From an uncultured Nitrospiraceae bacterium (lineage in GTDB: Bacteria > Nitrospirota > Nitrospiria > Nitrospirales > Nitrospiraceae), in NCBI GenBank assembly GCA_963730935.1, contig CAVSTP010000004.1, positions 288,001 to 352,000 on the forward strand: a DNA stretch of 64,000 nt, written 5' to 3'. A model generated the notes under the pieces. The model was not told where the DNA came from. It saw only the letters and a program-made list of their open reading frames with translations, and ran no database searches. Numbering within the stretch: position 1 is the first letter of the stretch; every line of letters starts with the position of its first letter. This document shows positions 21,839 to 61,522 of the stretch, piece by piece. The position numbers were made by a program, and so were the translations under genes.

Positions 21839-22783
21839 CTAGTAGGCGTCTTGCGCGCAGCGGAAACCCGTGCCGCTGGGGCGGCTGTCGATGGTGCCCC
21901 AATCGCGGTCGCTCGTCCGCAGACTTGCCGCCGGCTTCAGCCAAGAGCCTCCGCGCATCGACTTGATCGCGCCCCGAGGTGGGCCCGTTGGGTTCGTGAG
22001 CGGCCCGGAAGGATAATAGTTGGGATCGTACCAATCTTGTACCCACTCGGCCACATTCCCGGCCATGTCGAAGAGCCCATAGGCGCTTACCGAGCCAGGG
22101 AAACTGCCGACCGGCATCGTCAGTACCTCTCCGTTGAGGCCCTTCTGTTTGGCGATGTGGGCTCCCTCGCCCTTGATCCAAAACGCTTCCCAGTCCGCCC
22201 CGCTGTCGAATTGGACCGTGCGGCCGGCCCAATAACTGGCGCTGTTGGCCAAGAACAGATCCCATTGGTCGCCCCATGGATACCGGCGCCCATCCGTTCC
22301 TCTGGCCGCCTTTTCCCATTCGGCTTCTGTTGGAAGCCGCTTGCCGGCCCAACGGCAATAGGCGTCAGCATCGGCCCAGCTGACATTCACGACGGGATGC
22401 CGTTCGATGCCCGGCATCGGTCTCCGATCCTCCCAGAGCGTCGCCGCGGGATTGGAGTTTTCCGGCATCCGGTGGCCGGTCATGGAGACGAAGAGGAGAT
22501 AGGCCTCGTTGGTGACTTCGAAGCGGTCGATGTAGAAGGCCGAGAGCAGCACGGATCGCTCCGGTTGCTCGTCTGGAAGACCGCCGCTCCCCGCTGCAGC
22601 GCCCATCCGGAATTCGCCAGCGGGCACGCGGACCATGTCGTCTGGTTTTTCGGAAGCGAGGGCCATATCAACTGGGCTTACGGTAAGAGCACAGAAGAGG
22701 AGAACGCGTGCAACGAGGCTGGACAATGTCACCGCTTGCGGATGCCGCAGGCGCGCGCGACTCCATCGCGGTAGGCAGTCCAC
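21839..22783 (-). CDS. Formylglycine-generating enzyme (SUMF1/EgtB-fold) family protein
   Basis: VPAGEFRMG, FEVTN, RLPTEAEWEKAARG, DMAGNVAEW, RGGSW, GFRC; catalytic Cys pair after RGGS absent. Confidence 0.92.
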   Translation of the reverse strand: MDCLPRWSRARLRHPQAVTLSSLVARVLLFCALTVSPVDMALASEKPDDMVRVPAGEFRMGAAAGSGGLPDEQPERSVLLSAFYIDRFEVTNEAYLLFVSMTGHRMPENSNPAATLWEDRRPMPGIERHPVVNVSWADADAYCRWAGKRLPTEAEWEKAARGTDGRRYPWGDQWDLFLANSASYWAGRTVQFDSGADWEAFWIKGEGAHIAKQKGLNGEVLTMPVGSFPGSVSAYGLFDMAGNVAEWVQDWYDPNYYPSGPLTNPTGPPRGAIKSMRGGSWLKPAASLRTSDRDWGTIDSRPSGTGFRCAQDAY

Positions 22784-23478
22784 AGTTTGAGCGCCCTGTT
22801 CAGATACCGTAGGATTGTCTCCTGTTGACTGAGCGTCTTGGCATGATTGACGACCATGTGATAGGCGTCATGGCGATGACCCGCTTCCACCATCTGGTGG
22901 GAGCGGATGAGGTCCATGGCATCCGGTGGAAGACCATAATGCCTGACCAGTGGATGTTGCTGGACGATCGACTCAATCTCTTCCGGTGTTCTTGGCTTCG
23001 ACGGTTCGGCCAACTCCTTACGGTCCTTGATGCTGCCTTCGACGAAAACGGTCATGACGGCGGCTCCCACAATCCAATCCCGGTGGTTTGACGCACGTTC
23101 GAGCCACGCACGGTACCGGCGCGCGCCAGGAAGGAGCCTCACATCCTCGAACGTCCGCGGCGGATAACCGAGTCCTCCCATCATTTGCAGAAACAGTTCC
23201 GGGTGCGACCTGCCCAAGGACAAACCACCGGTGTCTTCCTCATAGATGTTCTCTGCGAGCATGCGCCGCACCGACGGCGGAGGATTGCGGCCGTGAATCC
23301 GGGCCAACAACACCGGAAAGTCCCGCACATATACAGCATATTCCTGCTGAAAATGTTGTTTCAACTGAGAGACCGTCGCCGTTCCGTCGGAAAACGTCGG
23401 CCATGCCCAATGATGTTTGCAATCCATGACGCGCAACAGCTCTTCCTGAAATCGGTTTGTCGTCAAAGGTCGTGTCAT
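22729..23478 (-). CDS. Heme-oxygenase-like (PqqC/CADD/TenA) enzyme
   Basis: ENIYEEDTG..SHPELF, VEGS, HQMVEAGH metal-ligand pattern. Confidence 0.8.
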   Translation of the reverse strand: MTRPLTTNRFQEELLRVMDCKHHWAWPTFSDGTATVSQLKQHFQQEYAVYVRDFPVLLARIHGRNPPPSVRRMLAENIYEEDTGGLSLGRSHPELFLQMMGGLGYPPRTFEDVRLLPGARRYRAWLERASNHRDWIVGAAVMTVFVEGSIKDRKELAEPSKPRTPEEIESIVQQHPLVRHYGLPPDAMDLIRSHQMVEAGHRHDAYHMVVNHAKTLSQQETILRYLNRALKLWTAYRDGVARACGIRKR

Positions 23479-23530
23479 GCGGGTTGCCTTCCTCATTGAG
23501 CCCTCGTTACAATCCCTAGTAGAGGTGTGG

Positions 23531-45768: not shown

Positions 45769-47712
45769 TCAGACCACGGCGTGCTCCTGCTTTTCCACAG
45801 CACTTGAAGGAGCGTCTGCCTGTGCCCGATAATCTTCAAGGTTGCGTTCAATGATTCCCTTGGAGAGAGATGGATAGGTACCGCCGAGTGCCTTTCTGCC
45901 GATGATCGTGACTGGCGTGTCGTGGTTGAAAATCAGCTCTCGAATCTGCTGTTTCACACGTGATCTGGCCTGATCAACCACTTCTTGGGCAAGATCCCAG
46001 ACTTCCGTCTGTCCCGCTGTCCGTTGTTGCTCCTCCGCGTAGAGGCTGGTCACCGCAATCAATAGGAGATCTTCGCCGACCGCTTCAATGCGGTTCTGGC
46101 GCCCCTGGTCGTCTCGAAACGCCTGCCGCAGCCAAAGCATCGCGTAAAACACCGCACGAGCAAGCCGGCGACTCGCACGCTCGACAAAAAGAAGGTGCGA
46201 CCGTACGTGTGGGGCCCGGAAGAGTGTCCCAGCGGGCAACCGCCCCGGCATCCATCGCCTGGCATACCAGGGCACGTAGAATTTGATCAGGCGCGCGATT
46301 TCCGTGAGCCGCCGGGCCGCCGACATCCTGTCATCAAAATAATCCCGCACACGCTCCAGGTGCATGTTGAGTGCTTCGCGGGCCACGAACGGACGCAAAA
46401 CGTCGGTTGCGCCTTCCCCGATGCGGTACATCTCAGCATCACGGACCAATTGTTCGATCCCGAAAGCCGGTTCACCGCGTACCCGCTTCGAATCCGCGGT
46501 CTCATACCCCATGCCTCCGAAGATAGTCTGAGCATCTTTTAGGAAGTGGATGGTAGTTTCGGAACAGAACAGTTTGGCAATTGCGGCCTCGATTCGGACG
46601 TCATAGCGGTGGTGGTCCGCCATGCGCCAGACTGTGAAAGCCAGAGCCTCCATTGCGAAAAGGCGTGCGGCCATCCGACCAACCCGCATCCGCTGGGTCT
46701 GCGACTCGGCGAGACGTCTTTGGAACGTGACTCGGCTGTTGGCTCGATCGAGCGTCGGCTGCCATGCTTGTTTCGCCATGCCCAGGCAGATCGCCGGAAT
46801 GCTCACCGCGCGACCGACATTAAGAATCGTCAGGGCGTATTTGAGTCCGCGTCCGACTTCGCCGATCAGACATGAGGCGGGAATGCGGACATCGTTTAGC
46901 GTGATGTGTGCATTTTCGATGCCCCGGCATCCCTCGAATTGACATCGCTGCCGGATCACCACTCCAGGAGTCTTCATATCTAGAACAAAGGCGGTATGAA
47001 CTGATTGCTCCGCTTCTTTCCCTTCCGGAACAGGAGTCCAGACGACATGGCCGCCTTGCTCTTCACGTCTTGCCGGCACACGAGCGATCAGCGTGAGATA
47101 TCGGGCGATGGGAGCGTTCGTACACCACAGTTTCTCACCGTTGACCACATAGTTCCCGCTGACATCAAGAACCGCTTGGGTTCTGATATTGGCGGCATCT
47201 GATCCGGTGAGGGGTTCGGTGAGCGCGAAAGCGGAGACCGCTTCACGGGCCACGATCGGCAGATACTGACGCTTCTGTTCTTCGCTCCCGAACAGGAGCA
47301 CCGGCATCGCGATACCAATCGATTGGGGAACGGCCACCGTGAGGGCAAGAATATTGCTCCATCCCGCGATGAGTACGAGAGCACGCCCGTAGTTCTGGTA
47401 CGAGAAGCCCAAACCGCCGTACTCTCTGGGAATCTTCATGGCGAACGCGCCAATCGAGAACAGACCGCTAATGACAGAATCCGGAATCTTCGCGGTCCGC
47501 TCAATTTCGTCCGGATCAACGTGGTGAGTGAGAAAGTGTTCCAATCGGGGCCGGAACTCTTCCCATGTGGCTTTCTGTTCGGGAGATTCGTCCGGGGTGA
47601 GAAGGAGAGAGAAATTTGGTTCACCGGCGTAGAGACCCGCCATGAAGCTATCCCCGGCAAGTCGCTCGCGCGCTTCTTCGATTCGCTCCAGGCCTTTGAA
47701 GAGCTGGGTCAC
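45769..47712 (-). CDS. Acyl-CoA dehydrogenase (long, VLCAD-like)
   Basis: AFALTEP..GSD, NGEKLWCTN, IFGGMGY, RIGEGA. Confidence 0.92.
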   Translation of the reverse strand: MTQLFKGLERIEEARERLAGDSFMAGLYAGEPNFSLLLTPDESPEQKATWEEFRPRLEHFLTHHVDPDEIERTAKIPDSVISGLFSIGAFAMKIPREYGGLGFSYQNYGRALVLIAGWSNILALTVAVPQSIGIAMPVLLFGSEEQKRQYLPIVAREAVSAFALTEPLTGSDAANIRTQAVLDVSGNYVVNGEKLWCTNAPIARYLTLIARVPARREEQGGHVVWTPVPEGKEAEQSVHTAFVLDMKTPGVVIRQRCQFEGCRGIENAHITLNDVRIPASCLIGEVGRGLKYALTILNVGRAVSIPAICLGMAKQAWQPTLDRANSRVTFQRRLAESQTQRMRVGRMAARLFAMEALAFTVWRMADHHRYDVRIEAAIAKLFCSETTIHFLKDAQTIFGGMGYETADSKRVRGEPAFGIEQLVRDAEMYRIGEGATDVLRPFVAREALNMHLERVRDYFDDRMSAARRLTEIARLIKFYVPWYARRWMPGRLPAGTLFRAPHVRSHLLFVERASRRLARAVFYAMLWLRQAFRDDQGRQNRIEAVGEDLLLIAVTSLYAEEQQRTAGQTEVWDLAQEVVDQARSRVKQQIRELIFNHDTPVTIIGRKALGGTYPSLSKGIIERNLEDYRAQADAPSSAVEKQEHAVV

Positions 47713-47722
47713 GAAAACCTCC

Positions 47723-49129
47723 TTAGGAGATCATCTCCTGTACAGGAGTTGTCTGGTCCAATTCTTCGAATCGAGCCGTAAAATGTCGCAGCATCGGCGC
47801 CTCGTAGATCATCGTGAGACCATGAATGCTCTCTCGGCGGCGATATAGGTCGACGATCGATTCGGCCACGTAGCCGATCTGCATGTTCGTATAGACCCGA
47901 CGCGGGATGGCGAGCCGAACCATTTCGAGCTCCGGATGGAGGATGCGACCGGTCGCGGCCTCCCGCTTTCCGAACATCACCGTGCCGATTTCGACTCCTC
48001 GGATCCCATAGTCCCTATACAGTGCGACGGCTAACGATTGGGCTGGAAATTGGTCCTGCGGGATGTGTGGAAGAAATTCTTTGGCGTTCAGATAGACGGC
48101 ATGTCCGCCGATCGGTTTGAGAATTGGCACGCCGGCTTGATCGAGGAGTTCTCCCAGATACCGGACCTGCCCGACGCGGAAGCTGAGGTAGTCCTCGTCG
48201 AGGACTTCACGGAGTCCTCTGGCCATCGCTTCCAGGTCGCGCCCCGCCAGCCCGCCGTAAGTCGGGAACCCTTCGACCAGAATGAGCATGTTCGTAATCT
48301 CCCGGGCCCATTCTTCGTTATTGAGGCTGAGAAATCCGCCGATGTTCACGAGGCCGTCCTTCTTGGCGGACATGGTGCAACCGTCGCCATAACCGAACAG
48401 CTCTTGAGCGATTTCCAGAATGGAACGGTCCACATAAGCCTGCTCACGCTCCTTGATGAAGAAGCAATTTTCGGCGAAACGACAGGCGTCGAAAAAGAGA
48501 GGAATGCCATGCCGATGCAGGAGCGCCCGGGTCTGTCTGATGTTTTCCATCGAGACCGGCTGCCCGCCGCCGCTGTTGTTTGTAATCGTCAGTAACACCA
48601 ATGGAATCCGGTCCCGACCGACGCGGTTGATGATCTCTTCCAGCCTCATCACATCCATGTTCCCTTTGAAGGGTGATTCATTGTGCGGGTCGTAGGCCTC
48701 TTTCACCACCGCATTGATCGCCTGTGCGCCTTGATGTTCAATGTTGGCCCTCGTCGTATCAAAGTGAATATTGTTGGGAACGCACATGTCAGGCTTCACG
48801 ACGGTGGAAAACAGGAGGTTCTCGGCCATGCGGCCTTGATGGGTGGGAATGACGTGTTTGTACCCAAAGATGGAGCGTACCGTCTCTTCGAAGTGATAAT
48901 AATTCTTGCTGCCGGCATAGGATTCGTCGCCCATCATCAAGCCGGCCCATTGATAGTCGCTCATGGCAGAGGTGCCGCTGTCGGTCAACAGGTCGACGTA
49001 AACGCTTTCGGCCGGGATTCGAAAGAGGTTGTAGCCGGCATCATTCAACAGGCGGTCACGTTCGGCGCGCGTGGTACGCCGAATCGGCTCTACGACTTTG
49101 ATCTTGAACGGCTCGGAGGGAAACTTCAT
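47723..49129 (-). CDS. tnaA: Tryptophanase
   Basis: EPFKIK, DLLTDSG, MSAKKDG (PLP Lys); VEIG and LRHFTA match tryptophanase rather than tyrosine phenol-lyase (MERG, LRFFTA). Confidence 0.88.
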   Translation of the reverse strand: MKFPSEPFKIKVVEPIRRTTRAERDRLLNDAGYNLFRIPAESVYVDLLTDSGTSAMSDYQWAGLMMGDESYAGSKNYYHFEETVRSIFGYKHVIPTHQGRMAENLLFSTVVKPDMCVPNNIHFDTTRANIEHQGAQAINAVVKEAYDPHNESPFKGNMDVMRLEEIINRVGRDRIPLVLLTITNNSGGGQPVSMENIRQTRALLHRHGIPLFFDACRFAENCFFIKEREQAYVDRSILEIAQELFGYGDGCTMSAKKDGLVNIGGFLSLNNEEWAREITNMLILVEGFPTYGGLAGRDLEAMARGLREVLDEDYLSFRVGQVRYLGELLDQAGVPILKPIGGHAVYLNAKEFLPHIPQDQFPAQSLAVALYRDYGIRGVEIGTVMFGKREAATGRILHPELEMVRLAIPRRVYTNMQIGYVAESIVDLYRRRESIHGLTMIYEAPMLRHFTARFEELDQTTPVQEMIS

Positions 49130-50088
49130 GCCAATGACCTCTTGACTCGAGCCAGTTCTGCCTTGAAAGCCTGTGGACCTGAATACTCAAACACATACCG
49201 AGTCATATCGAAGAGCGGAGCGGGATCCAAATCCCTGAGGAGGTCCGGCTTCCACGTAATCTCCAATTGGTTGATCATCGTTATGGGAGTCGGCGTCCCG
49301 ACCACGCCGAGTTCCATCTGCCCGTATGACTGAGAAAAGATGAGAATCTCGCGGTCAAACATCGCGGCATTGAGATCGGTCGCGGCCCCTTGGCGTCTAT
49401 AATCCTCTTCGAATCGCCGGAACGCCGGGGAGCGATCGAGTTGCTCCCTAAAGGCGTAGAAGATATTGATGCCGGCCCGGTGTTGATCGTCCATGACCTG
49501 CACCGCATCGGCCACCACTGCCTCGTGTTGCATCTGCTCCCGGGTTAGCACCAATAGGCGGCGAATGACGACTCCACGCTTGGCTGCGACCTGGTTTGCC
49601 AAGAGATAGTTCGGATACAGTGCCTCGCCTTTCTTCCAGATGTTCCAGCGCTCCATGACCGCATCAATGGAGCGGTCGGCCGTTTGAACAAGGCGGACCG
49701 CTTCGGCATTGGCCTCCGCACCTTCGTAGGTCAAGGTTTGGGTCTCGAGTTGCCGCAGTTCGCGCCCGATCGCCTCGACCTTCCGTGGGATGTATCGTGG
49801 TGTCTTGGGCACGTGGAGCATGACGTCGACCGCCGTCAATGCCAGGGTCCAATATTGTTTGGCAGAGCTCGGGGCCTTCTCTTTCTGAGCGATGAGCAGA
49901 AGTTCCACGGGGTTCTTATCCAGCAGTTTGGCGATCTTCATGCAGATTTCCGGTTTCGGAATCTTGAGTCCGCGGCGGATCAAATTGGCATCCGGTTGCG
50001 CAATCCCCAGCCTTTTTGCCAACGCGTAGTCGCTGGCAAGGTCATACCGTTCTTTGATTGCCTCAAGATACGCCGAAATCTCAGACAT
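49126..50088 (-). CDS. Xre-type HTH regulator with large C-terminal domain
   Basis: SDYALAKRLGI...KIAKLLDKNP N-terminal HTH; GAGGAG RBS; stop overlaps tnaA start. Confidence 0.78.
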   Translation of the reverse strand: MSEISAYLEAIKERYDLASDYALAKRLGIAQPDANLIRRGLKIPKPEICMKIAKLLDKNPVELLLIAQKEKAPSSAKQYWTLALTAVDVMLHVPKTPRYIPRKVEAIGRELRQLETQTLTYEGAEANAEAVRLVQTADRSIDAVMERWNIWKKGEALYPNYLLANQVAAKRGVVIRRLLVLTREQMQHEAVVADAVQVMDDQHRAGINIFYAFREQLDRSPAFRRFEEDYRRQGAATDLNAAMFDREILIFSQSYGQMELGVVGTPTPITMINQLEITWKPDLLRDLDPAPLFDMTRYVFEYSGPQAFKAELARVKRSLA

Positions 50089-50139
50089 TGAGCTCCTCTT
50101 CCCTGATGACGGCGACATCCTCGTGATGCCAAGACATCA

Positions 50140-50871
50140 TCATGCCGCGTGATGGTACGTGGGATGGATCGTCTTATCAGGGAACGTTTGCCGCTCCAGG
50201 CCCATCCAAAATCCTTCAAGATAATCAAGCACCGCACTCACGCCAGTCCGAAAGTCTTCCTTGTCGCGTTCCGACAGCCCGTCTTGTGCGGCGCCTTGAA
50301 CTGCCTCCACTGCATGCTTCATCGCCTCCTCATGAGTACTTTCGAGCTCGCGATGAAAGGTGAAGTAGGTGATGTCCATTTGAGGATAGCGGGTATTCTT
50401 CAACTGAGTGAGGCCCGGAATCAGGTGGTCCCACATCGTAATTGCCATATTTTCAAGGCCGAAGGATGCGCCGAGCGCCTTTGTGTGATTGCCGTCGCTA
50501 TAGAGCCGTTCCATTCCCTCGATGTAACTTCGAGTTGAAGGGAGCATCGGCCGCGTCATGGCGTCATGGATATCGACTCCTGCTGATCGAAGAAAGTCCC
50601 GATAGAGGAGTTCGTGCCGATGTCGGCTCTGGCCGTCACCCAACTCGGAATACAGAACTTTGGTCAGCTCATCAGCGACTTGTTCATCTTCGGTATTCAC
50701 GAGCTGCGAGATGAGAATACGTGGAAAGAACCGCGCGAAGTTATAGAACTCGATGGCGAATTCTCTAAACTCACTGTCCGAAACATTTCCCGCGCGAAAG
50801 CGGGTGAGATAGACATTGTTGATCGCACCATGCCCGAGCACGAGGCGCCGCATGTCTTGATGGAATGTCAT
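50140..50871 (-). CDS. Heme-oxygenase-like dimetal enzyme (CADD/PqqC-like)
   Basis: SELG...RHE, GLENM, YFTFHRELESTH give six E/H ligands; GGAGG RBS. Confidence 0.85.
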   Translation of the reverse strand: MTFHQDMRRLVLGHGAINNVYLTRFRAGNVSDSEFREFAIEFYNFARFFPRILISQLVNTEDEQVADELTKVLYSELGDGQSRHRHELLYRDFLRSAGVDIHDAMTRPMLPSTRSYIEGMERLYSDGNHTKALGASFGLENMAITMWDHLIPGLTQLKNTRYPQMDITYFTFHRELESTHEEAMKHAVEAVQGAAQDGLSERDKEDFRTGVSAVLDYLEGFWMGLERQTFPDKTIHPTYHHAA

Positions 50872-51040
50872 GAGAGTCCCTCCAGGACGAGGAGTGGAGC
50901 GGGGGAGGCGCGATTCATAGTCAACCTGGCTCGATGATATACCTTTTATATCACCCATGCAAGAAGAGACTGTTGGCCAGAACCAATGGCCTGTATGGTC
51001 ATATGGAGGATGTGCGGCGTGGTATCATTACTAAAACATG

Positions 51041-51114
51041 TTGCCATTGGAATACAATAATAGTAGTATCCTATCATACAATGTAATAAGGGCATTGCTG
51101 TGATGACTCACAGC
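51041..51114 (+). promoter_or_regulatory. Promoter and palindromic site for the rightward catabolic operon
   Basis: TTGCCA (51041-46), 17 nt, TAGTAT (51064-69); GCTGTGA-N4-TCACAGC (51097-51114). Confidence 0.6.
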
Positions 51115-51163
51115 CAACGGAATGCATCCTAAGTAACGTTTGCGGTGAGGAGGGACCTTCACC

Positions 51164-51751
51164 ATGATAGAGCCAAGAAGCATCGATCACATCACGCTCT
51201 GCGTGGAAAATCTGGCCGAGGCCGAATTCCTCTTCACAAAGGTTCTAGGTTTTGAAGTGATTTGGTCGGCGCGCGACGTCGGCACCGACAAATCGTCGAT
51301 GGATACCGTGGTCGTCCAGTGCGGCGCCGCAAGAATTGCTCTCATGCAAGGCCGAGACAAGGCCATGAAATCCCAAATTACCGACTTTATCGAGCGGTAC
51401 GGCCAAGGGGTGCAACATGTCGCGCTCGAAGTGGATGACATCGAGGCCGTATGTCGTGAGTGGGAAGCTCACGGCGTCAAATTCAGTGGAGCGGTGAAGG
51501 AAGGCCGCGATGGATTCGGACCGCTCAAGCAACGATTTACCTATCCGCTCTTTCCGGGGAGCGGCCTGTTCATTGAATTGACTCAAAGAGAGCATGGAGA
51601 GGAAAGGGCCAAGACCTTTGTCCGCAGCACGGTCGAGTCATTGTACAAGGATATCGAACGGGACCAAGCCTCCGGAGCTCAACGAACGATCATCGATTAC
51701 GACTCCAGAGAGCCTCGTACGCCACCTGCGCCGTTGAAGAAGGCGTCATGA
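51164..51751 (+). CDS. Single-domain 4-hydroxyphenylpyruvate dioxygenase-like VOC protein
   Basis: IDHIT, SQITDFIERYGQGVQHVAL, LKQRFT, LFIELTQR, LYKDIERDQ match the HPPD C-terminal catalytic domain; directly upstream of hmgA. Confidence 0.8.
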   Translation: MIEPRSIDHITLCVENLAEAEFLFTKVLGFEVIWSARDVGTDKSSMDTVVVQCGAARIALMQGRDKAMKSQITDFIERYGQGVQHVALEVDDIEAVCREWEAHGVKFSGAVKEGRDGFGPLKQRFTYPLFPGSGLFIELTQREHGEERAKTFVRSTVESLYKDIERDQASGAQRTIIDYDSREPRTPPAPLKKAS

Positions 51752-51775
51752 TCACGCCTGATTGCGGAGGTCCGC

Positions 51776-52864
51776 ATGTATCTCAACAGTAAAGGGAAAG
51801 TTCCCCGGCAAGCGCATGTCGGCATTCCCGAGGGCCTTTGCGAAGAGGAACACGGCCGAAACGGCTTTGCCGGGCCCGTGTCCCATCTCTACAGAACCCA
51901 TCCGCCGACTGGTTGGGTTCGGATCGACGGACCGCTGAGGCCTCGTGCCTTTATGTGTCAGTTGCCGGCTTCCGCCGAGCCCGTTCTCATGATGCACAGT
52001 CCTGACGCCAGCCTCTCTTTCTCGCACCGGATCGAAACCATGCGCTATTTCGTGCGCGACTCGGACGGGGATGCAGTCTATTTTGTCCATCGGGGAACAG
52101 GGCGGTTCGAGACGGATTATGGAACGCTGCCCTACGAGCCCGGCGATTACGTCACCATTCCCAAAGGAACGACCTACCGGATTCATGTTGATTCGGGTCC
52201 GGCGGTCTTTCTCATTATCGACACACCCGAGCCAATTGCGTTGGCGGAGCGAGGGCCGCTGGGTCAGCATGCGCTTTTCGACAGGGGAGTCCTCGTTGTG
52301 CCGGAATTGACCACGCTCGAGCGCTCCGAGCCGGAGGGAACAGAGTGGGAAGTCCGCATTAAACGTCAAGGAAGCTGGACACGGGTTATCTATCCGTTTT
52401 ATCCAATGGATGTCGTCGGATGGAAGGGTGATCTCTGGGTCGCAAAACTCAATGTGCGCGACTTCAGGCCGGTCACGAGCCCCCGTTACCATCTTCCACC
52501 GAGTGTTCACGGAACGTTTCAAGCGGGCGGCTGCCTCATCTCCACGTTCGCGCCGCGGCCGCTTGAGACCGATCCCGAGGCACTACGGGTCCCCTTTTAC
52601 CATCGGAACATGGACTATGATGAAGTGCTCTTCTACCACGATGGCGAGTTTTTCAGCCGCGCCGGTATGCAGCCGGGCATGCTGACCTTGCATCCACAAG
52701 GCATTCATCACGGGCCGCAACCGAATGCGGTGGAAGCCAGCAAGGCCAAGACTCACACGACCGAAGTCGCAGTAATGATCGAATCCAAGCGTCCATTTAC
52801 CGTGGACAATGCCATGGAGGCGATCGAAATCAAGGACTATGCCTTGAGTTGGAGTCATCGATGA
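51776..52864 (+). CDS. hmgA: Homogentisate 1,2-dioxygenase
   Basis: EEEHGRNGF, DVVGWKG, HLPPSVH, PFYHRNMDYDEVLFY, HPQGIHHGP. Confidence 0.93.
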   Translation: MYLNSKGKVPRQAHVGIPEGLCEEEHGRNGFAGPVSHLYRTHPPTGWVRIDGPLRPRAFMCQLPASAEPVLMMHSPDASLSFSHRIETMRYFVRDSDGDAVYFVHRGTGRFETDYGTLPYEPGDYVTIPKGTTYRIHVDSGPAVFLIIDTPEPIALAERGPLGQHALFDRGVLVVPELTTLERSEPEGTEWEVRIKRQGSWTRVIYPFYPMDVVGWKGDLWVAKLNVRDFRPVTSPRYHLPPSVHGTFQAGGCLISTFAPRPLETDPEALRVPFYHRNMDYDEVLFYHDGEFFSRAGMQPGMLTLHPQGIHHGPQPNAVEASKAKTHTTEVAVMIESKRPFTVDNAMEAIEIKDYALSWSHR

Positions 52865-53838
52865 AACTGGTGACGTTTCAGATCGGCACGCCACTCGGCC
52901 CCTTTAGCCGCGTGGGCGCGTTGCACGGTCAGCATGTGGTGGATTTGAACATGGCCTATGTCCGATGGTTGTCAGATCAAGGGGAGGCGCAGCCACACCG
53001 GTTGGCCGATGCCCAGGTGCCATCGATCATGTTGGCATTCCTGGAAGGAGGCCCATCGACAATGGCAGCGGCGCGACGTGCATTGGATTATGTCGTCGCG
53101 ATTGGTTCTTCAGCCCAAGGTCCAGACGCGGAAACGCTTTTTTATCCGCTGAACACAGTGAAGCTCGCCGCGCCACTTCCAAATCCTTCTTCTCTCCGTG
53201 ACTTTATCGCGTTTGAAGACCACATTGCCGCGACATCAAAGAAACGGGGTCAGCCAATTCCGCCGGAATGGTACAAGTTTCCCGTGTACTACAAGGGGAA
53301 CCATCGCTCGATTATCGGGCCGGATGAAGCGTTGCCGTGGCCGCTGGACACAGCCAAGCTGGACTACGAATTAGAGCTTGCCTGCGTTATCGGACGGAAA
53401 GGACGGGACATTTCTGAACGGAATGCCGGGGACTATATCGCCGGCTATACTATTATGAACGACTTCAGCGCTCGCGACATCCAGTTTCAAGAAATGGCCT
53501 GCCGCCTGGGCCCTGCAAAAGGAAAAGACTTCGCGACAGCTCTCGGACCTAGTCTCATGACCCCTGAAGAAATTGTCGATCTCGATGCATTGACCATGAT
53601 TGCCAGAGTAAACGGAGAGGAGTGGTCCAGGGGTCGCTTTGGGACCATCCACTGGTCCTTTCCCCAAATGATCGCACATGTCTCGCGGGGAGAGACAATT
53701 TACCCCGGCGATGTGTTCGGTTCGGGAACCGTGGGAGGGGGCTGCGGGTTGGAGTTGGACCGCTACTTGAAGCCGGGTGATGTTGTGGAGTTGGAAATTC
53801 AGCCCATCGGCGTGTTGAGGACCCAAGTCGTCGCATAG
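52861..53838 (+). CDS. fahA: Fumarylacetoacetate hydrolase family protein
   Basis: RDFIAFEDH, PVYYKGN, LDYELE, NDFSARD, GPAKGKDF, SGT. Confidence 0.88.
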   Translation: MKLVTFQIGTPLGPFSRVGALHGQHVVDLNMAYVRWLSDQGEAQPHRLADAQVPSIMLAFLEGGPSTMAAARRALDYVVAIGSSAQGPDAETLFYPLNTVKLAAPLPNPSSLRDFIAFEDHIAATSKKRGQPIPPEWYKFPVYYKGNHRSIIGPDEALPWPLDTAKLDYELELACVIGRKGRDISERNAGDYIAGYTIMNDFSARDIQFQEMACRLGPAKGKDFATALGPSLMTPEEIVDLDALTMIARVNGEEWSRGRFGTIHWSFPQMIAHVSRGETIYPGDVFGSGTVGGGCGLELDRYLKPGDVVELEIQPIGVLRTQVVA

Positions 53839-54633: not shown

Positions 54634-55662
54634 ATGGACCTGGCAGACGTGACCAGCCAAATCAAACGAGCCGACCTGCTCCACATGTATTACTACCTCC
54701 GGCTTACCAGAGCTCTGGAGGATCGCATCACCGCGCTCTATCGTCAGGGGCGGATCGTCGGCGGCTGTTACACCAGCCACGGCATGGAGGCCATCGCAGT
54801 CGGGTATGCCTCCGCACTCGAGCATGACGATGTCATCGCCCCCTTCCACCGCGACATGGGAGCCTTCCTGATTCGAGGCATCACGCCGGGCGAAGTGCTT
54901 GCGCAGTATTTGGGAAAGCGGACAGGCCCGACGAAGGGCAAAGATGGCAACGTGCACATGGGTGATCTCAAACGTGGGATCATCGGCTTTGTCAGTCACT
55001 TGGCCGATAATTTACCGGTGGCAACCGGCGCGGCCTTGGCCTTCAAGATGAGAGGAGAGTCGCGCATTGTCGTCGCCGGGACCGGCGACGGGGGAACCAG
55101 CCGCGGAGATTTCCACGAAGCCATGAATTTTGCGGCGGTGCGGAAGCTTCCCGTGGTGTTCTTCTGCACCAACAATCAGTACGCCTATTCGACGCCGCTC
55201 CGCTTACAGATGGCGATTACCGACGTTGTTGAGCGGGCTAAGGCGTACGGAATGCCGGGGGAGATTGTGGATGGGAACGATGTCGCGGCCGTCTATCTGG
55301 CGGCCAAGCGCGGAATCGCTAAAGCCCGTGCCGGTGAGGGACCAACTTTCTTCGAGTTCAAGACCATGCGCATGCATGGCCACTCCGAGCACGACCCGGC
55401 CAAATACGTCCCCCCAGAGCTCCTTGAAGAATGGAAAAAACGAGATCCGATTCTAGCAGCAGAGCGCCTGCTCCTTGAGGCGGGTTATGGGGATGAAACC
55501 TACTTCCATGAGATCGGCGAGCGGGTGAAAAAAGAACTGGAAGCCGCCCTGGAATTTGCCGAGAAGAGTCCGTTGCCGGAAGGACCGGAAGCCTTGGAAG
55601 GAGTTTTTGCCACAGACGCCGATATCTCTCACCAAGCCACCCATTCAAGGAGCGCCGCATGA
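54634..55662 (+). CDS. 2-oxoacid (probably branched-chain) dehydrogenase E1 alpha
   Basis: GDGG..GDFHEAMN...NNQYAYST TPP motif; RMHGHSEHD. Confidence 0.92.
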   Translation: MDLADVTSQIKRADLLHMYYYLRLTRALEDRITALYRQGRIVGGCYTSHGMEAIAVGYASALEHDDVIAPFHRDMGAFLIRGITPGEVLAQYLGKRTGPTKGKDGNVHMGDLKRGIIGFVSHLADNLPVATGAALAFKMRGESRIVVAGTGDGGTSRGDFHEAMNFAAVRKLPVVFFCTNNQYAYSTPLRLQMAITDVVERAKAYGMPGEIVDGNDVAAVYLAAKRGIAKARAGEGPTFFEFKTMRMHGHSEHDPAKYVPPELLEEWKKRDPILAAERLLLEAGYGDETYFHEIGERVKKELEAALEFAEKSPLPEGPEALEGVFATDADISHQATHSRSAA

Positions 55663-56657
55663 CTACTGCAACATCGCACGCGACTGGAGAGGTCACATAC
55701 CTGGAGGCCATTTCCCAAGCGCTGGATGAGGAGATGACGCGAGACGAGCGAGTGTTTCTGATGGGGGAGGATATCGGGCAGTATGGGGGGGCATTCAGGA
55801 TTACCGAAGGCTTCTTAGACAAGTATGGCGAATGGAGAATTCTCGATACCCCGCTGGCCGAATCCGGATTTGTCGGCGCAGCGATCGGCGCAGCGATGAT
55901 GGGGTTGCGTCCGGTCGTCGAGATGCAGTTTGCGGATTTCATTTCTTGCGCCTTCGATCAAATCACCGAGGTGGCGGCCAAGAATCACTACCGCTGGGGT
56001 GCTGCGGTGCCGATGGTCATCCGTGCACCCTTTGGTGGAGGTATCCACGGTGGGCCGTTCCATTCGGAATGCCCGGAAGGTTGGTTCTTTCACTCGCCCG
56101 GGCTCAAGCTTGTCGCGCCGTCAACGCCCTACGATGCGAAAGGCTTGCTCAAAGCGGCAATCCGCGACCCGAATCCGGTCATTTACTTCGAACACAAATT
56201 TCTTTACCGGCGCATCAAGGCGACTCTGCCAACGGACGATTACATCGTCCCAATCGGCAAAGCCGACGTAAAGCGGCCGGGCAACGACATCTCGGTCATC
56301 ACGTACGGCGCCATGGTGCATCTGGCCCTAGAAGCGGCGCAGATGCTGGCTAAGGAAGGCATTGACCTGGAAGTCGTGGATCTCCGCACGCTGGCGCCTC
56401 TCGACAAGGAGGCGATCTTCTCATCGGTGCAGAAGACGAGCAAGGCCATTGTCTTGCACGAGGACAATAAGACCGGTGGCATCGGCGCCGAGATCGCTGC
56501 ACTCCTGGCGGAAGAATGCTTCGACAGTTTGGACGGCCCGATTGTGCGCATTGCCGCGCCCGATACGCCGGTGCCCTTCAGTACACCACTGGAGGAGTTT
56601 TTTCTGCCGAAGACGGCTGACATTGTGACTGCAGCGCGCACACTGGCCGCATATTGA
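55659..56657 (+). CDS. 2-oxoacid dehydrogenase E1 beta
   Basis: GEDIG, DTPLAE, EMQFADF, HGGPFHS, FEHK. Confidence 0.93.
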   Translation: MTTATSHATGEVTYLEAISQALDEEMTRDERVFLMGEDIGQYGGAFRITEGFLDKYGEWRILDTPLAESGFVGAAIGAAMMGLRPVVEMQFADFISCAFDQITEVAAKNHYRWGAAVPMVIRAPFGGGIHGGPFHSECPEGWFFHSPGLKLVAPSTPYDAKGLLKAAIRDPNPVIYFEHKFLYRRIKATLPTDDYIVPIGKADVKRPGNDISVITYGAMVHLALEAAQMLAKEGIDLEVVDLRTLAPLDKEAIFSSVQKTSKAIVLHEDNKTGGIGAEIAALLAEECFDSLDGPIVRIAAPDTPVPFSTPLEEFFLPKTADIVTAARTLAAY

Positions 56658-56676
56658 ACGCACATTGGGTGTGATT

Positions 56677-57819
56677 GTGGCCACCGATATCATCATGCCT
56701 CAACTCGGCGAAAGCATCGCGGAGGGCACCGTGGTGAAGTGGCTCATTCCCCTTGGCGGCGCGATTGAAAAGGACCAATCCTTGTTGGAGGTCGAAACCG
56801 AAAAAGTTGATCTCGAAGTCCCCTCGCCGGCGACCGGCGTGCTGAACGAGATCCTCGTCAAAGAGGGTGAAACAGTGGCCGTCGGAACGCTGTTGGCACG
56901 AATCGACAGTGCGCCTCCGGCGGAGGTGATCAGCCGCGTGGGCGGCGTCGTGGTTCGTCCCGTCGACTCGGACGCCGCAGGTGAGGAGCATCATTCTCCT
57001 GCCGTCCGGCAGTTGGCGAAAGAACATGGTGTGGACCTTGCGCATCTGAAAGGGACAGGGGCCGGCGGGCGGGTCAGCAAGAAAGATGTGCTTGAATTCG
57101 TTGCGCGGAATTCAGCACCTGGTAAGGCGACAGCGGCGAACGGGGAGCCCTCCATGGGGGAGGAGATTCTCCCCCTCAGCCAGATGCGCAAAACCATCGC
57201 GGACCGGATGGTCAAAAGCCGACAGACCTCCGCACACGTCAGCACGTTTTTTGAAGCCGACTTTTCCAGCATCGCGTCCTTCCGGGCAGGCCGAGATCTG
57301 ACGTATTTGCCGTTTGTCGTCCGTGCCGTCACGCGCGCCCTCCGCGATGTGCCCATTGTCAATTCGACATGGGGAGACCAAGGCATCGTCATCAAGAAGG
57401 ACCTTCATATCGGGATCGCCACTGCGCTGGAAGAGGGATTGCTTGTTCCGGTGGTGCGGCATGCCGATCGCAAGGGCCTTACGCAGTTGGGGAAAGAAAT
57501 CGCGGATCTGGCCGAGCGCGCGAGATCCAAGAAGCTTAGCCCCGATGAGGTGCAGGGCGGGACATTCACGATTACGAACCATGGCGGCTTCGGCAGCTTG
57601 TTCAGCACCCCGATTATTCACCAGCCGCAAATTGCCATCCTCGGAGTGGGCGCTGTCCAGAAGCGTGCTGTCGTGGTCAACGAGGCGATTGCGATCAGAC
57701 CGATGGGGTACCTGAGCCTCTCGTTCGACCACCGGGTCATCGATGGGGCAACGGCGGATCATTTTATGGCAAAGGTGAAACACTATCTTGAAGCCGGTCA
57801 CTGGGAGCAGATCTTGTGA
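56677..57819 (+). CDS. Dihydrolipoamide acyltransferase E2
   Basis: Lipoyl domain ETEK, E3-binding GTGAGGRV, DHRVIDG. Confidence 0.93.
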   Translation: MATDIIMPQLGESIAEGTVVKWLIPLGGAIEKDQSLLEVETEKVDLEVPSPATGVLNEILVKEGETVAVGTLLARIDSAPPAEVISRVGGVVVRPVDSDAAGEEHHSPAVRQLAKEHGVDLAHLKGTGAGGRVSKKDVLEFVARNSAPGKATAANGEPSMGEEILPLSQMRKTIADRMVKSRQTSAHVSTFFEADFSSIASFRAGRDLTYLPFVVRAVTRALRDVPIVNSTWGDQGIVIKKDLHIGIATALEEGLLVPVVRHADRKGLTQLGKEIADLAERARSKKLSPDEVQGGTFTITNHGGFGSLFSTPIIHQPQIAILGVGAVQKRAVVVNEAIAIRPMGYLSLSFDHRVIDGATADHFMAKVKHYLEAGHWEQIL

Positions 57820-59000
57820 AACCATCATTAAATGCCGTCATTGTCAGTGCCGTACGAACTCCGATGGGCAGTTTCAACGGCGTCTTTAGTTCCGTACCGG
57901 CGACGAAATTGGGTAGCGTCGCCATTGCCGGAGCGCTGCAGCGGGTTCGCGTGTCCCCGGGGAGTGTGGATGGCGTCTATATGGGGTGCGTGCTGAGCGC
58001 CGGCCTCGGTCAGGCTCCGGCCAGACAGGCATCGATTGGAGCGGGAATCCCGCAGTCGGTCGGTGCCGTGACGGTCAACAAGGTCTGCGGCTCGAGTATC
58101 CAGACCGTCATCATGGCCTCGCACGCCGTTGCACTTGGTGAGGCCAAGATCGTCGTGGCAGGCGGGATGGAGAACATGACTCGCGCTCCCTATCTTCTCG
58201 AGAACGCGCGTCAGGGTTATAAGCTTGGCCATAAAGAGTTGGTGGATAGCCTCATCAAAGACGGATTATGGGATGTTTACAACAATTTCCATATGGGCGA
58301 CGGCGGGGAGTTGTGCGCAAGTAAATACCGGCTGACACGACAGCAGGTCGACGACTTTGCCCTGGAAAGCTATCGGCGCGCGCGTGAAGCCATGGCGTCG
58401 GGCGTGTTCAAACGAGAGATCGTGCCGGTCGATGTGCCGCAACGCAAAGGTCCGGCTGTAACGGTTTCCGACGACGAGGAGCCCAATCGAGCCGATCTCC
58501 GCAAGATGCGCGACTTGAAGCCGGCGTTCCAGGAGAACGGCATTTTGACTGTCGGCAATTCGCCTTCCTGTAACGATGGAGCCGCAGCGTTGATTGTCAT
58601 GGCTGAAGGGGAGGCTGCGCGTCTTGGACTTACCCCGATGGCGCGCATCGTCGGATATGCCGGAGCCGCGCTGGCGCCCGAGTGGTTCACGATCGCGCCG
58701 ATCGAGGCGATCCAACGTGTGCTCAAGAACACAGGGTTGACGATCGGAGACATCGATCTGTTCGAAATCAACGAAGCATTTTCGGCCGTGTCTCTCGCCA
58801 TCCACCGCGAACTAGGCCTCGACGACAAGAAGGTGAATGTGAACGGCGGGGCGGTCGCCCTCGGGCATCCCATCGGTGCGACCGGCGCCAGAATCCTGAC
58901 GACACTGCTTCATGGTATGGAAGCGCGCGGCGCAAGGCGGGGATTGGCCAGCCTCTGTATCGGCGGCGGAGAAGCGTTGGCAATGATCGTGGAGCGGTAA
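57816..59000 (+). CDS. Acetyl-CoA C-acetyltransferase (thiolase)
   Basis: NKVCGS, NEAF, GHPIGATG, CIGGG. Confidence 0.95.
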   Translation: MKPSLNAVIVSAVRTPMGSFNGVFSSVPATKLGSVAIAGALQRVRVSPGSVDGVYMGCVLSAGLGQAPARQASIGAGIPQSVGAVTVNKVCGSSIQTVIMASHAVALGEAKIVVAGGMENMTRAPYLLENARQGYKLGHKELVDSLIKDGLWDVYNNFHMGDGGELCASKYRLTRQQVDDFALESYRRAREAMASGVFKREIVPVDVPQRKGPAVTVSDDEEPNRADLRKMRDLKPAFQENGILTVGNSPSCNDGAAALIVMAEGEAARLGLTPMARIVGYAGAALAPEWFTIAPIEAIQRVLKNTGLTIGDIDLFEINEAFSAVSLAIHRELGLDDKKVNVNGGAVALGHPIGATGARILTTLLHGMEARGARRGLASLCIGGGEALAMIVER

Positions 59001-59004
59001 CCGG

Positions 59005-59916
59005 ATGGCGAACGGCTCGATCATGCAATCCGACGATATCAAGATCATCGGCGTCGTGGGCGCGGGCCAGATGGGCCGCGGAATCGCGCAGGTCTGCGCG
59101 ACGGCTGGATATCACGTGCTGCTCGTGGACGTTGCCGAGCCGCTGTTAGCCGGGGCCGTCTCTAAGATACGCGCCAGCCTTGATCGCGCCATTGAACGTG
59201 GCGTGCAGTGCCAGATCGAAGAGGTGCTTGCACGGATCCAACCGGTGATGCAGATCGATCGCTTACGCGACGCCCAGTTGGTCATCGAGGCGATTCCCGA
59301 GGTTCTGGCTCGCAAGCAGGCCCTCTTCGGTGAATTGAACCGGCACTGTCAGCCGCATGCGATTCTGGCCAGCAACACCTCGTCGATTTCAATTACCAAA
59401 TTGGGTGCCGCATCCGGCCGACCCGATCGAGTCCTCGGCGTGCATTTCATGAATCCGGTTCCCGTGATGCGGCTCGTGGAGATTGTCCAGGGTCCCGAAA
59501 CTTCGCAACATACTTTGCAGATGGCCATGGAGCTCTCGCGCAGACTGGGGAAGGTGCCGGTCGTGGCCAAAGATGTTCCCGGTTTTATCGTGAACCGCGT
59601 GCTGATGCCCATGATCAACGAAGCCGTGTTCGCATTAGAAGAGGGAGTCGCCTCTGCGGAGGATATCGATCTGGCGATGACTACCGGAGCGAATCATCCC
59701 GTCGGACCGCTGGCGCTGGCGGACCGCATCGGCTTGGACACGGTGCTCGCGATCTGCGAGGTGCTCTATCAGGATCTGGCTGATCCCAAATTCCGTCCGT
59801 GCCCAATCCTGCGCCGCTACGTCGAGGCTGGCTGGCTGGGTCGAAAAGCGGGACGCGGATTCTATTTCTACGAAGCAAGGGGAGCGCGCCAGGAGGCCAC
59901 CAGCAATAAGATGTGA
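59005..59916 (+). CDS. hbd: 3-hydroxybutyryl-CoA dehydrogenase
   Basis: [32 protein letters not shown]. Confidence 0.9.
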
Positions 59917-59926
59917 GGATGGATCG

Positions 59927-61522
59927 ATGCAAGAACGCCGCGATCGCTTTCACACACTGTCCGGACTCGAGATCAACAGCCTGTACACCCGCGACGATCT
60001 GAAGAATTGGTCGGCCGGGGAGGATCTGGGCACTCCAGGCTCATACCCCTACACCCGCGGCGTCTATCCCACGATGTACCGCGGCCGGCTCTGGACGATG
60101 CGGCAATTCGCCGGCTTCGGCTCAGCCGATGACACCAACGTTCGCTTTAAATATTTACTCGAGCACGGGCAAACCGGTCTCAGCGTCGCATTCGACATGC
60201 CCACACTAATGGGGATCGATGCGGATGATCCGCGCGCTCACGGTGAAATCGGACACTGCGGTGTGGCGGTGTCCTCCCTGGATGATATGGAACGTCTGTT
60301 CGCCGGAATTCCGCTCGATCGGGTCACGACGTCCATGACGATCAATGGACCGGCGGCCGTCATTTTTGCCATGTACCTCGCAGTCGCGCAACGGCGTGGC
60401 GTCCCTCACGAACAGCTGGGCGGCACGTTACAGAATGACATCCTGAAGGAATATATCGCCCAGAAGGAATGGCTGTTCCCGCCCGAACCTTCGCTCCGTC
60501 TCATCACCGACACGGTGGCGTACTGCACAACGCACATACCCAAATGGCACCCGATCAGTATCAGCGGCTACCACATTCGGGAGGCCGGTTCGACGGCGGC
60601 CCAGGAGTTGGCCTTTACCCTGTACGATGGACTGACGTACGTGGAGGAGGGCATTAAGGCCGGTCTTCCTGTGGATCGCTTCGCCCCGCAGTTGTCTTTC
60701 TTCTTTAACGTGCACAATGACTTCTTCGAAGAAGTCGCCAAGTTCAGAGCGGCCCGGAGGCTTTGGGCCCGTGAGATGACGCGTCGATATCGCCCCAACG
60801 ATCCGCGGTCGGCTCAGCTCCGCTGTCATGCGCAGACAGCGGGGTGCTCGCTTACGGCTCAGCAGCCGATGAACAATGTGGTGCGGACGACGCTTCAGGC
60901 CCTGGCAGCCGTATTGGGCGGAACCCAATCGCTCCACACGAATTCAATGGACGAAACGCTCGCCCTGCCGACTGAACAGGCCGTGAAGCTCGCGTTGCGT
61001 ACGCAGCAAATCATCGCTCACGAAAGCGAGGTCGCGAACAGCGTGGATCCGTTAGGCGGTTCGTACTTGGTCGAAACGCTCACGAATCGACTCGAAGAGG
61101 CGGCGCTCGAGTATTTCAGGAAGCTGGACGACATGGGCGGCATGGTCAACGCGATCGAGCGGGGCTATCCACAGCGGGAAATCCTCGATGCCTCACAGCG
61201 CTACCAGCGGGAAGTGGAGCAGGGACAACGGATCATCGTGGGCGTCAACCAGCACGTTGAGGAAGAGGTGCATCCGATACCGACGTTGAAAATCGGGGCG
61301 GAGGTCGAGCAGGAACAGGTGGCGCGGCTGTCGGATCTCCGAAAGACCCGCGACCCGTTCAGAATGGCCGGCGCCGTGGAAGAGCTGCAGGAAGCGGCGT
61401 CTTGCGGTGAGAACGTGATGCCCTATTTGATCGAGGCAGTGAAGGCCAAGGCGACACTCGGGGAAATTTGTACGGCATTGCAGGAAGTCTATGGGGTCTA
61501 TCGGGAACCGGTAGTGCTCTGA
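59927..61522 (+). CDS. icmA: B12-dependent acyl-CoA mutase large subunit, isobutyryl-CoA mutase type
   Basis: RQFAGF (Phe at the MCM Tyr89 position), [14 protein letters not shown] (Gln at the MCM Arg207 position), SGYHIREAG. Confidence 0.8.

Follow-up and report, generated by a model that had tools for sequence, protein, structure and literature searches.

We identified a gene for a heme-oxygenase-like dimetal enzyme (HDO) that stands back to back with homogentisate catabolism genes in an uncultured Nitrospiraceae bacterium. The gene lies in a stretch of 64,000 nucleotides (hereafter the window, whose numbering is used throughout; positions 288,001 to 352,000 of contig CAVSTP010000004.1). 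The clade to which this HDO belongs is very probably tied to the homogentisate pathway, and the HDO is probably an unrecognized part of a variant of that pathway. An earlier sequence-only reading of the window had named co-occurrence with hppD and hmgA in advance as the observation to look for, and the clade is indeed physically linked to these genes in two unrelated lineages, as is a sister family in a third. We infer the substrate, reaction and reductant of the enzyme, and our tentative proposal is that it serves as the O2-dependent entry enzyme of the homogentisate branch, a pterin-independent hydroxylase converting phenylalanine to tyrosine. The open-licence literature yielded no description of an HDO in homogentisate catabolism, of this clade or of the cluster.

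The HDO gene and its homogentisate partners

On the minus strand the HDO gene is followed by genes for an XRE-type helix-turn-helix (HTH) regulator, a beta-eliminating lyase and an acyl-CoA dehydrogenase. The plus strand carries genes for an HPPD-like VOC protein, a short HmgA and a hydrolase of the FAH family. The features at the center of this study are:

50140..50871, minus strand: HDO-fold dimetal protein (243 aa, PF14518)
50872..51163, no strand: divergent intergenic region of 292 bp between the HDO and HPPD-like genes
51164..51751, plus strand: candidate single-domain HPPD-like Fe dioxygenase (195 aa), assigned from its profile score and active-site alignment
51776..52864, plus strand: hmgA, short-type homogentisate 1,2-dioxygenase (PF20510 and PF04209)
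52861..53838, plus strand: FAH-family hydrolase (fahA/hmgB; PF01557), whose ATG overlaps the hmgA stop codon
53854..54606, plus strand: degenerate phosphoribosyltransferase-fold (PRT-like) protein (pyrE_Therm, 44 bits against a cut-off of 150), beyond the region covered by the sequence-only reading

The HDO start is most likely at 50871 rather than at 50958, because close homologs are mostly 240–245 aa long and a GGAGGG ribosome-binding motif lies upstream; the size of the shared intergenic region follows from this start. Apart from that shift, the open reading frames (ORFs) bear out the sequence-only reading, which had the HDO first in a left-hand run and the homogentisate genes at the head of a right-hand run leaving the same intergenic region. 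The HDO gene is 21 nt from the longest ORF of the regulator, the regulator and lyase genes overlap by 4 nt, and 10 nt separate the lyase and acyl-CoA dehydrogenase genes. Judging by spacing, both runs are probably operons. A promoter scan of the intergenic region gave one sigma-70-like match, at 51041, which is at chance level (1.4 expected). Contigs from soil RNA libraries share at most 0.29 of words with the locus, which indicates that related DNA or RNA is present and is no sign of transcription itself. The organism is Nitrospira-like, going by named close homologs, and its genome is 99.9% complete.

Family, fold and metal ligands

The HDO is a true member of the HDO superfamily. It scores 85 bits against PF14518 (cut-off 28.9), and both this match and a structural model support the heme-oxygenase-like fold of seven helices. 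The model, built from an alignment (predicted local distance difference test, pLDDT, 94; a single sequence alone gave 49), superposes on CADD, HrmI and BesC with tied Z-scores of 25.2–25.5 and root-mean-square deviations (rmsd) of 2.0–2.5 Å over 211–221 residues. Six metal ligands (E76, H86, E140, H173, E177 and H180) align with the ligand positions of BesC and CADD and are invariant in all 91 rows of the clade alignment, from which four long-branch rows were left out; the protein presumably binds metal. By eye, Phe49 appears to occupy the place of a seventh ligand, and replacement of this ligand is described for substrate-triggered HDOs in the available text of PMC13133933. The residues E41, R47, R85, E87, W147, F172, R174 and E181 are nearly invariant in the clade and not in an outgroup of 27 HDOs, which suggests that the clade has one conserved function.

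Databases label the protein 'iron-containing redox enzyme', 'TenA' or 'PqqC'. Its match to PF03070 (TenA/PqqC) is 32 bits, just over the cut-off of 22 and far under the PF14518 score; the dimetal ligand set is complete, and no thi or pqq genes neighbor the locus. The HDO is not a para-aminobenzoate (pABA) synthase, an activity that the sequence-only reading had listed as speaking against its proposal. The self-sacrificial pABA synthases CtCADD and NePabS (1rcw, 8va9, 9pj4) share the fold (Z 25.5, rmsd 2.0 Å over 212 residues) and the ligand set with its three histidines and three carboxylates. However, the sacrificial Tyr27 and Lys152 of CADD align with Leu22 and Leu150 of the HDO (Leu or Ile in 91 of 91 rows), TIGR04305, which covers CADD/PabS pABA synthases, is matched with 54 bits against a cut-off of 200, and the locus has no folate context.

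The closest solved sequence is BesC, the 4-chloro-allylglycine synthase (PDB 7twa; profile E 1.8e-26), with which the HDO shares the six ligands and an E-x5-R-x2-P helix (Z 25.2, rmsd 2.1 Å over 211 residues). However, the two are only about 24% identical, the BesC equivalog NF042919 gives 60 bits against a cut-off of 500, no bes-like genes are nearby, and BesC performs C-C cleavage in secondary metabolism whereas the HDO stands in a catabolic context. Two predictions of a complex between the HDO and the HPPD-like protein both scored 0.00, which counts neither for nor against a pairing. A second PF14518 HDO, of a different clade, is encoded 27 kb away (22729-23496, minus strand) and has no tblastn match to the first.

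Linkage in Nitrospirales

We found 276 clade matches in GTDB species genomes and examined the best 80, ranked by likeness to an archaeal sequence. Among these the clade is narrow, comprising Nitrospirales, Thermoplasmatales and scattered other archaea. Sixty relatives of the source genome divide into 30 with a close HDO and hmgA, 29 with neither and one (76% complete) with hmgA alone, a pattern that indicates gain and loss as a block. At 63 Nitrospirales-like loci the HPPD-like gene is divergent and within 2.2 kb of the HDO in all 54 that have enough flank, and hmgA, fahA and the PRT-like gene occur at 45 of 45 assessable loci. In contrast, the tryptophanase-type lyase gene tnaA is within 2.5 kb in just 18 of the 45. 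The regulator directly follows the HDO in 22 of 45, and the link between the HDO and the HPPD-like gene is kept where regulator and tnaA move away. As these genomes are kin, no weight is placed on Fisher tests of the counts. The HDO therefore belongs with the homogentisate genes and not with tryptophanase.

In other Nitrospirales a more distant HDO (27–30%) is coupled to the gene for a 494-aa S-adenosylmethionine methyltransferase (L041:9596-11812, L043, L044).

Linkage in archaea and on a cyanobacterial plasmid

The HDO occurs in 44 of 81 Thermoplasmatales genomes and hmgA in 41, and every one of the 41 also has the HDO. The two genes are within 10 kb of each other in 29 of these 41 and within 200 bp in nine. 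In three genomes (G107, G115, G133) HDO, hppD, fahA, hmgA and a gene for an iron-containing alcohol dehydrogenase (Fe-ADH) follow each other on one strand, and in Ferroplasmaceae the HDO is tail to tail with hppD-fahA-hmgA and the gene for acetoacetate-CoA ligase. Linked members are spread over several subclades of the archaeal HDO tree.

The archaeal partner is a canonical two-domain HPPD (393 bits against a cut-off of 277) with the active-site Asn in 15 of 15, and the window hmgA is 32% identical to that of Thermoplasmatales (32–36% to the archaeal, Bacillota and cyanobacterial hmgA of hppD operons). Since the partners differ in this way from the single-domain protein and hmgA of Nitrospira, the linkage is not one copied block. 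Nitrospirales and archaeal HDOs also form separate well-supported clades, and the link is therefore either old or has arisen twice.

On a plasmid of the cyanobacterium Kovacikia (NZ_CP083583.1) the order is hppD, hmgA, HDO, acyl-CoA synthetase and class I aminotransferase. This HDO (307 aa) represents a sister family and keeps the six ligands. Four other plasmid HDO matches (25–29%) were inspected and have no hppD nearby, and four other plasmid hppD loci have no HDO match.

Unlinked or orphan HDO copies are common in archaea. The neighbors of stand-alone copies include genes for an Lrp regulator, for a transporter of the EamA or POT type and, in one case, tyrS: in one Aenigmatarchaeota genome (L072:9562-11762) a small ORF, the HDO and the tyrosyl-tRNA synthetase gene are co-oriented, with the HDO 37 bp upstream of tyrS. 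Among 81 Nitrososphaerales and 301 Aenigmatarchaeota the HDO was found in the seed genome only (1/81 and 1/301).

Other genes of the pathway

The pathway comprises the steps from phenylalanine to tyrosine, from tyrosine to 4-hydroxyphenylpyruvate and from this to homogentisate, followed by ring cleavage, isomerization and hydrolysis. The statement in the sequence-only reading that the window has no phenylalanine hydroxylase, tryptophan dioxygenase or aromatic aminotransferase holds. Beyond it, phhA (PF00351), tryptophan dioxygenase and maiA (TIGR01262) have no match in the whole genome, in which controls were detected. The lack of an aminotransferase in the window means little, since 14 class I/II matches are present elsewhere in the genome. 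The HmgA and FAH-family domains (PF20510, PF04209 and PF01557) are over their cut-offs, and the equivalog cut-offs of TIGR01015 and TIGR01266 are not reached.

The HPPD-like gene is the only one in the genome. The sequence-only reading called its product a 'mini-HPPD'; the protein falls below the HPPD cut-off (89 bits against 277 for TIGR01263), its active site is non-canonical, and it is not a canonical HPPD. With HPPD and hydroxymandelate synthase it shares the C-terminal catalytic domain, the His-His-Glu triad (H9/H85/E138) and three glutamines (Q71/Q84/Q123), but it has one domain only, and the Ser, Pro, Asn and FG.GNF positions are replaced by T48, A59, M61, V153, T156 and V157. Judged by eye from the alignments, human Ser226, Pro239, Asn241 and the Phe of the GNF motif correspond to Thr48, Ala59, Met61 and Val157, and Met is at the Asn position in 108 of 110 sequences. 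According to the available text of two papers, HPPD mutants at the Asn and Ser lose efficiency 160- and 12-fold (PMC6750108), whereas quinolacetate, oxepinone or hydroxymandelate is set free by enzymes altered at Asn241, Pro214 or Phe337 (PMC13260116). The product of the HPPD-like protein may differ from homogentisate when it acts alone. We considered the JGI label methylmalonyl-CoA epimerase for this gene unlikely, given 56 bits against 115 and an HPPD-type C-terminal helix, although it is the best epimerase match of the genome.

A second lineage of Thermoplasmata carries a single-domain HPPD-like gene that is 27–29% identical and has the same active-site changes (L245:11361-12161, L247:6310-7086). 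The same lineage has a PRT-like gene, 25–35% identical, between hmgA and fahA (L245:8798-9469, L246:8635-9318, L248, L249), and together the two seem to form a separate module. In the PRT-like protein the acidic pair typical of the phosphoribosyl pyrophosphate loop is missing, as judged by eye, and a His, a Cys and a CPLC motif are conserved. It is probably an unrecognized pathway part and a candidate for a missing enzyme.

Other lineages have other candidates. Of 25 archaeal loci, 14 (L210:9006-10043 and 13 more, all from Thermoplasmatales) have a gene after hmgA for an Fe-ADH resembling maleylacetate reductase. The closest relatives of this Fe-ADH with a solved structure are MAR1 (9ph0) and maleylacetate reductases, and it would be a possible reductive bypass of maleylacetoacetate isomerase. 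A conserved hypothetical gene without a Pfam match directly precedes fahA in the hppD clusters of Kovacikia and Tsukamurella (29% identical; L269:11543-12436, L273:8322-9164). A 338-aa hypothetical protein is encoded in the equivalent place in Priestia (L270), a likeness by position only.

The hppD-hmgB-hmgA operon of the Bacillus cereus group resembles the window in its short hmgA, its FAH-family gene and the lack of an identifiable maiA, and its gene order is that of Thermoplasmatales. However, genomes of this group also carry a putative phhA at another site, their HPPD is full-length, and the available text mentions neither an HDO nor a PRT-like gene (PMC4457819).

Possible functions of the HDO

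We propose that Nitrospirales use this locus for the aerobic catabolism of amino acids, with an aromatic branch via homogentisate. The predicted diiron center of the HDO, with its three histidines and three carboxylates, would bind an aromatic amino acid, most likely L-phenylalanine, activate O2 and hydroxylate the ring to give tyrosine; a carrier of the cell whose gene lies outside the cluster would supply the electrons. Tyrosine would be converted to 4-hydroxyphenylpyruvate by a housekeeping aminotransferase. Homogentisate would then be formed by the HPPD-like protein, perhaps together with the PRT-like one, and HmgA and then the FAH-family enzyme would complete the pathway. The reaction and pathway place would be those of PhhA, but fold and cofactor are unrelated; PhhA uses a mononuclear iron plus a pterin. 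Ferritin-like diiron enzymes are known to hydroxylate arenes.

The idea of a phenylalanine hydroxylase, already voiced in the sequence-only reading, fits the gene inventory. Hydroxylation of the ring of phenylalanine (or of its keto acid) would be the most economical task for the HDO because transamination and the steps after ring cleavage have other candidate genes, and because such an enzyme would be of use whether or not the pathway is present. None of the 80 HDO genomes examined has a phhA match, while the B. cereus group, whose operon is similar, has a putative one. A dedicated aminotransferase gene is part of the Kovacikia operon, and two further genomes (G073, G074) have one next to hmgA. 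For the step after HmgA each lineage has another candidate: the Fe-ADH in archaea, the PRT-like protein in Nitrospira, and the hypothetical protein before fahA in Kovacikia and Tsukamurella. That the nearest solved relative, BesC, acts on a free amino acid supports, by analogy, an amino-acid substrate, and the Lrp, EamA/POT and tyrS neighbors of orphan HDOs fit a reaction on a free amino acid that is useful without the pathway.

Several observations weigh against this proposal. The HDO reactions listed in the available text of a 2026 review are N-oxygenation, C-C cleavage, desaturation, rearrangement, C-N formation and self-sacrifice, and arene hydroxylation is not among them (PMC13108848). 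The cluster contains no reductase gene. Although phhA is found in none of the 80 HDO genomes examined, it is also found in none of 251 Thermoplasmata; its absence is not specific to HDO genomes, and the anti-correlation gives no information because entire lineages lack phhA, whether they carry the HDO or not. COX1 is present in 42 of 44 HDO-positive and in 3 of 37 HDO-negative Thermoplasmatales; presence and absence in this group therefore mostly mark aerobic lineages, and only physical linkage is specific. Three Thermoplasmatales carry the HDO without hmgA, and six Thermoplasmata have hmgA and no HDO match (five rechecked at E 0.01). The PF04209 search is insensitive and missed known positives. 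Among archaeal HDO genomes, which are metagenome-assembled and whose completeness is unknown, hmgA has no match in 12 of 17 and HPPD is over its cut-off in none of 10 examined. Rieske/cytochrome b genes precede the HDO in one archaeal subclade, a Gloeothece homolog 70% identical to the Kovacikia HDO is not beside hppD, and the adjacency to tyrS is found in one genome of 301. Finally, tyrA is present in 12 of 12 Nitrospirales, including the source genome (outside the window).

Two further roles were considered and rejected. Loss of tyrA as a mark of anabolic use of the HDO is contradicted by its retention in Nitrospirales, and the archaeal tyrA matches are weak and ambiguous. A role in quinone (methyl-plastoquinone) synthesis finds no place, since two papers on the topic make no mention of homogentisate and 30 of 60 related genomes have no match to the HDO.

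The HDO might instead be an accessory protein of the pathway. It could manage iron or peroxide on behalf of HPPD and HmgA, both of them Fe(II) enzymes, or salvage reactive by-products such as quinolacetate, oxepinone or benzoquinone acetate. Its presence in all 41 hmgA-positive Thermoplasmatales and in 30 of 31 such Nitrospirales is tighter than would be expected of an optional phenylalanine feeder, and Met in the Nitrospira HPPD-like protein lies at the Asn position where HPPD variants release quinolacetate or oxepinone (PMC13260116, available text). However, the HDO persists in genomes without an hmgA or HPPD match, is linked equally to canonical HPPDs, and is missing from the six hmgA genomes described above, two of which were shown to have a similar single-domain HPPD-like gene. 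We regard an accessory role as unlikely.

Somewhat less likely still is a general role in aerobic life or amino-acid catabolism, for example on a non-aromatic or damaged amino acid, with proximity to hmgA reflecting the clustering of catabolic genes. COX1 predicts the HDO as well as hmgA does (42/44), the Nitrospira cluster also holds branched-chain catabolism, and unlinked archaeal copies are frequent. But the HDO is adjacent to or co-oriented with hppD or hmgA in three lineages with different types of partner. Five Thermoplasmatales genomes show a mismatch between COX1 and the HDO, and in these the HDO goes with hmgA; in three others it follows COX1 without hmgA.

An O2-dependent deaminase that turns tyrosine or phenylalanine into the keto acid, in place of an aminotransferase or phenylalanine dehydrogenase, would account for the Nitrospira cluster having no aminotransferase. 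In other hppD operons the position of the HDO is taken by an aminotransferase (Priestia) or by a divergent Glu/Leu/Phe/Val dehydrogenase (Tsukamurella), and HDOs are described as oxidizing amines (PMC13108848, available text). This role is nonetheless improbable: the Kovacikia operon has both the HDO and an aminotransferase, the hmgA-adjacent aminotransferases of G073 and G074 speak likewise, and the source genome has aminotransferases elsewhere.

That the HDO replaces maleylacetoacetate isomerase, for which the missing maiA could be cited, is very unlikely, as no isomerase can be identified in the operon of the B. cereus group either, every HDO lineage has another candidate gene beside hmgA or fahA, and orphan HDOs would be useless. 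Least likely of all is a tryptophan or indole oxygenase partnering tryptophanase, the other branch of the sequence-only proposal: to our knowledge there is no route from tryptophan to homogentisate, and despite the close spacing of HDO and tnaA on one strand at this locus and the oxidation of bromo-tryptophan by AetD and SktA (PMC13108848, available text), the link to tnaA is loose in Nitrospirales, tnaA has no match in archaeal HDO loci, and AetD reaches only Z 17.8 against the HDO model compared with about 25 for CADD, HrmI and BesC.

If the HDO is a phenylalanine hydroxylase, Nitrospirales may run a rebuilt phenylalanine/tyrosine pathway with three unrecognized parts, namely the pterin-free HDO, which aerobic archaea without PhhA would share, an HPPD-like dioxygenase that has one domain and an unusual pocket, and a phosphoribosyltransferase-fold protein put to a new use that would finish homogentisate formation or replace the isomerase; we consider this combination possible, if doubtful.

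Remaining genes of the cluster

The cluster extends on both sides of the genes described above:

49126..50088, minus strand: XRE-type HTH regulator with a C-terminal domain resembling DUF5919 (HTH_3 match below cut-off)
47723..49129, minus strand: beta-eliminating lyase, tryptophanase-type at the specificity positions (NF009709, 681 bits, over cut-off)
45769..47712, minus strand: acyl-CoA dehydrogenase, at the downstream end of the left run
54634..61522, plus strand: 2-oxoacid dehydrogenase E1a/E1b/E2, thiolase, 3-hydroxyacyl-CoA dehydrogenase and acyl-CoA mutase, continuing the amino-acid catabolic cluster

The regulator most likely starts at 50088. This XRE regulator with its DUF5919-like domain is specific to Nitrospirota and occurs in at least three Atlas clusters; across Nitrospirales loci the regulator remains in the cluster but switches side. 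The lyase is overall nearer to tyrosine phenol-lyase (TPL), with best PDB matches of 537 bits to TPL and 494 bits to tryptophanase. However, it has Asp, Ile and His where TPL has Thr, Arg and Phe, at what we take to be the positions that set tryptophanase and TPL specificity.

To the right the cluster runs past the region of the sequence-only reading into branched-chain amino-acid catabolism. The large subunit of the acyl-CoA mutase (59927-61522, plus strand) has residues that are presumably of the isobutyryl-CoA-mutase type, and the genome has no methylmalonyl-CoA epimerase over cut-off. At the window end and beyond (about 350800-359300 of the contig, G000:C4) ORFs resemble, by eye, methylcrotonyl-CoA carboxylase, enoyl-CoA hydratase, hydroxymethylglutaryl-CoA lyase and prpD/prpB/prpC, that is, leucine-degradation and methylcitrate genes. 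Together these genes make up an extensive island for amino-acid catabolism in a lineage of nitrifiers, present as a block in about half of the related genomes.

Implications

About a dozen HDOs have been characterized, mostly in natural-product or cofactor synthesis (PMC13108848, available text). With a clade linked to homogentisate catabolism in archaea as well as bacteria, a large HDO branch of unknown function gains a short list of candidate substrates that can be put to the test. Were the conversion of phenylalanine to tyrosine correct, the enzyme would be a second, pterin-free phenylalanine hydroxylase, adding arene hydroxylation in primary catabolism to HDO chemistry, and it would explain how aerobic Thermoplasmatales could degrade phenylalanine without PhhA. 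Even with another reaction, the HDO would be a missing part of a textbook pathway. For the organism, the cluster points to the use of aromatic and branched-chain amino acids by nitrifying Nitrospira.

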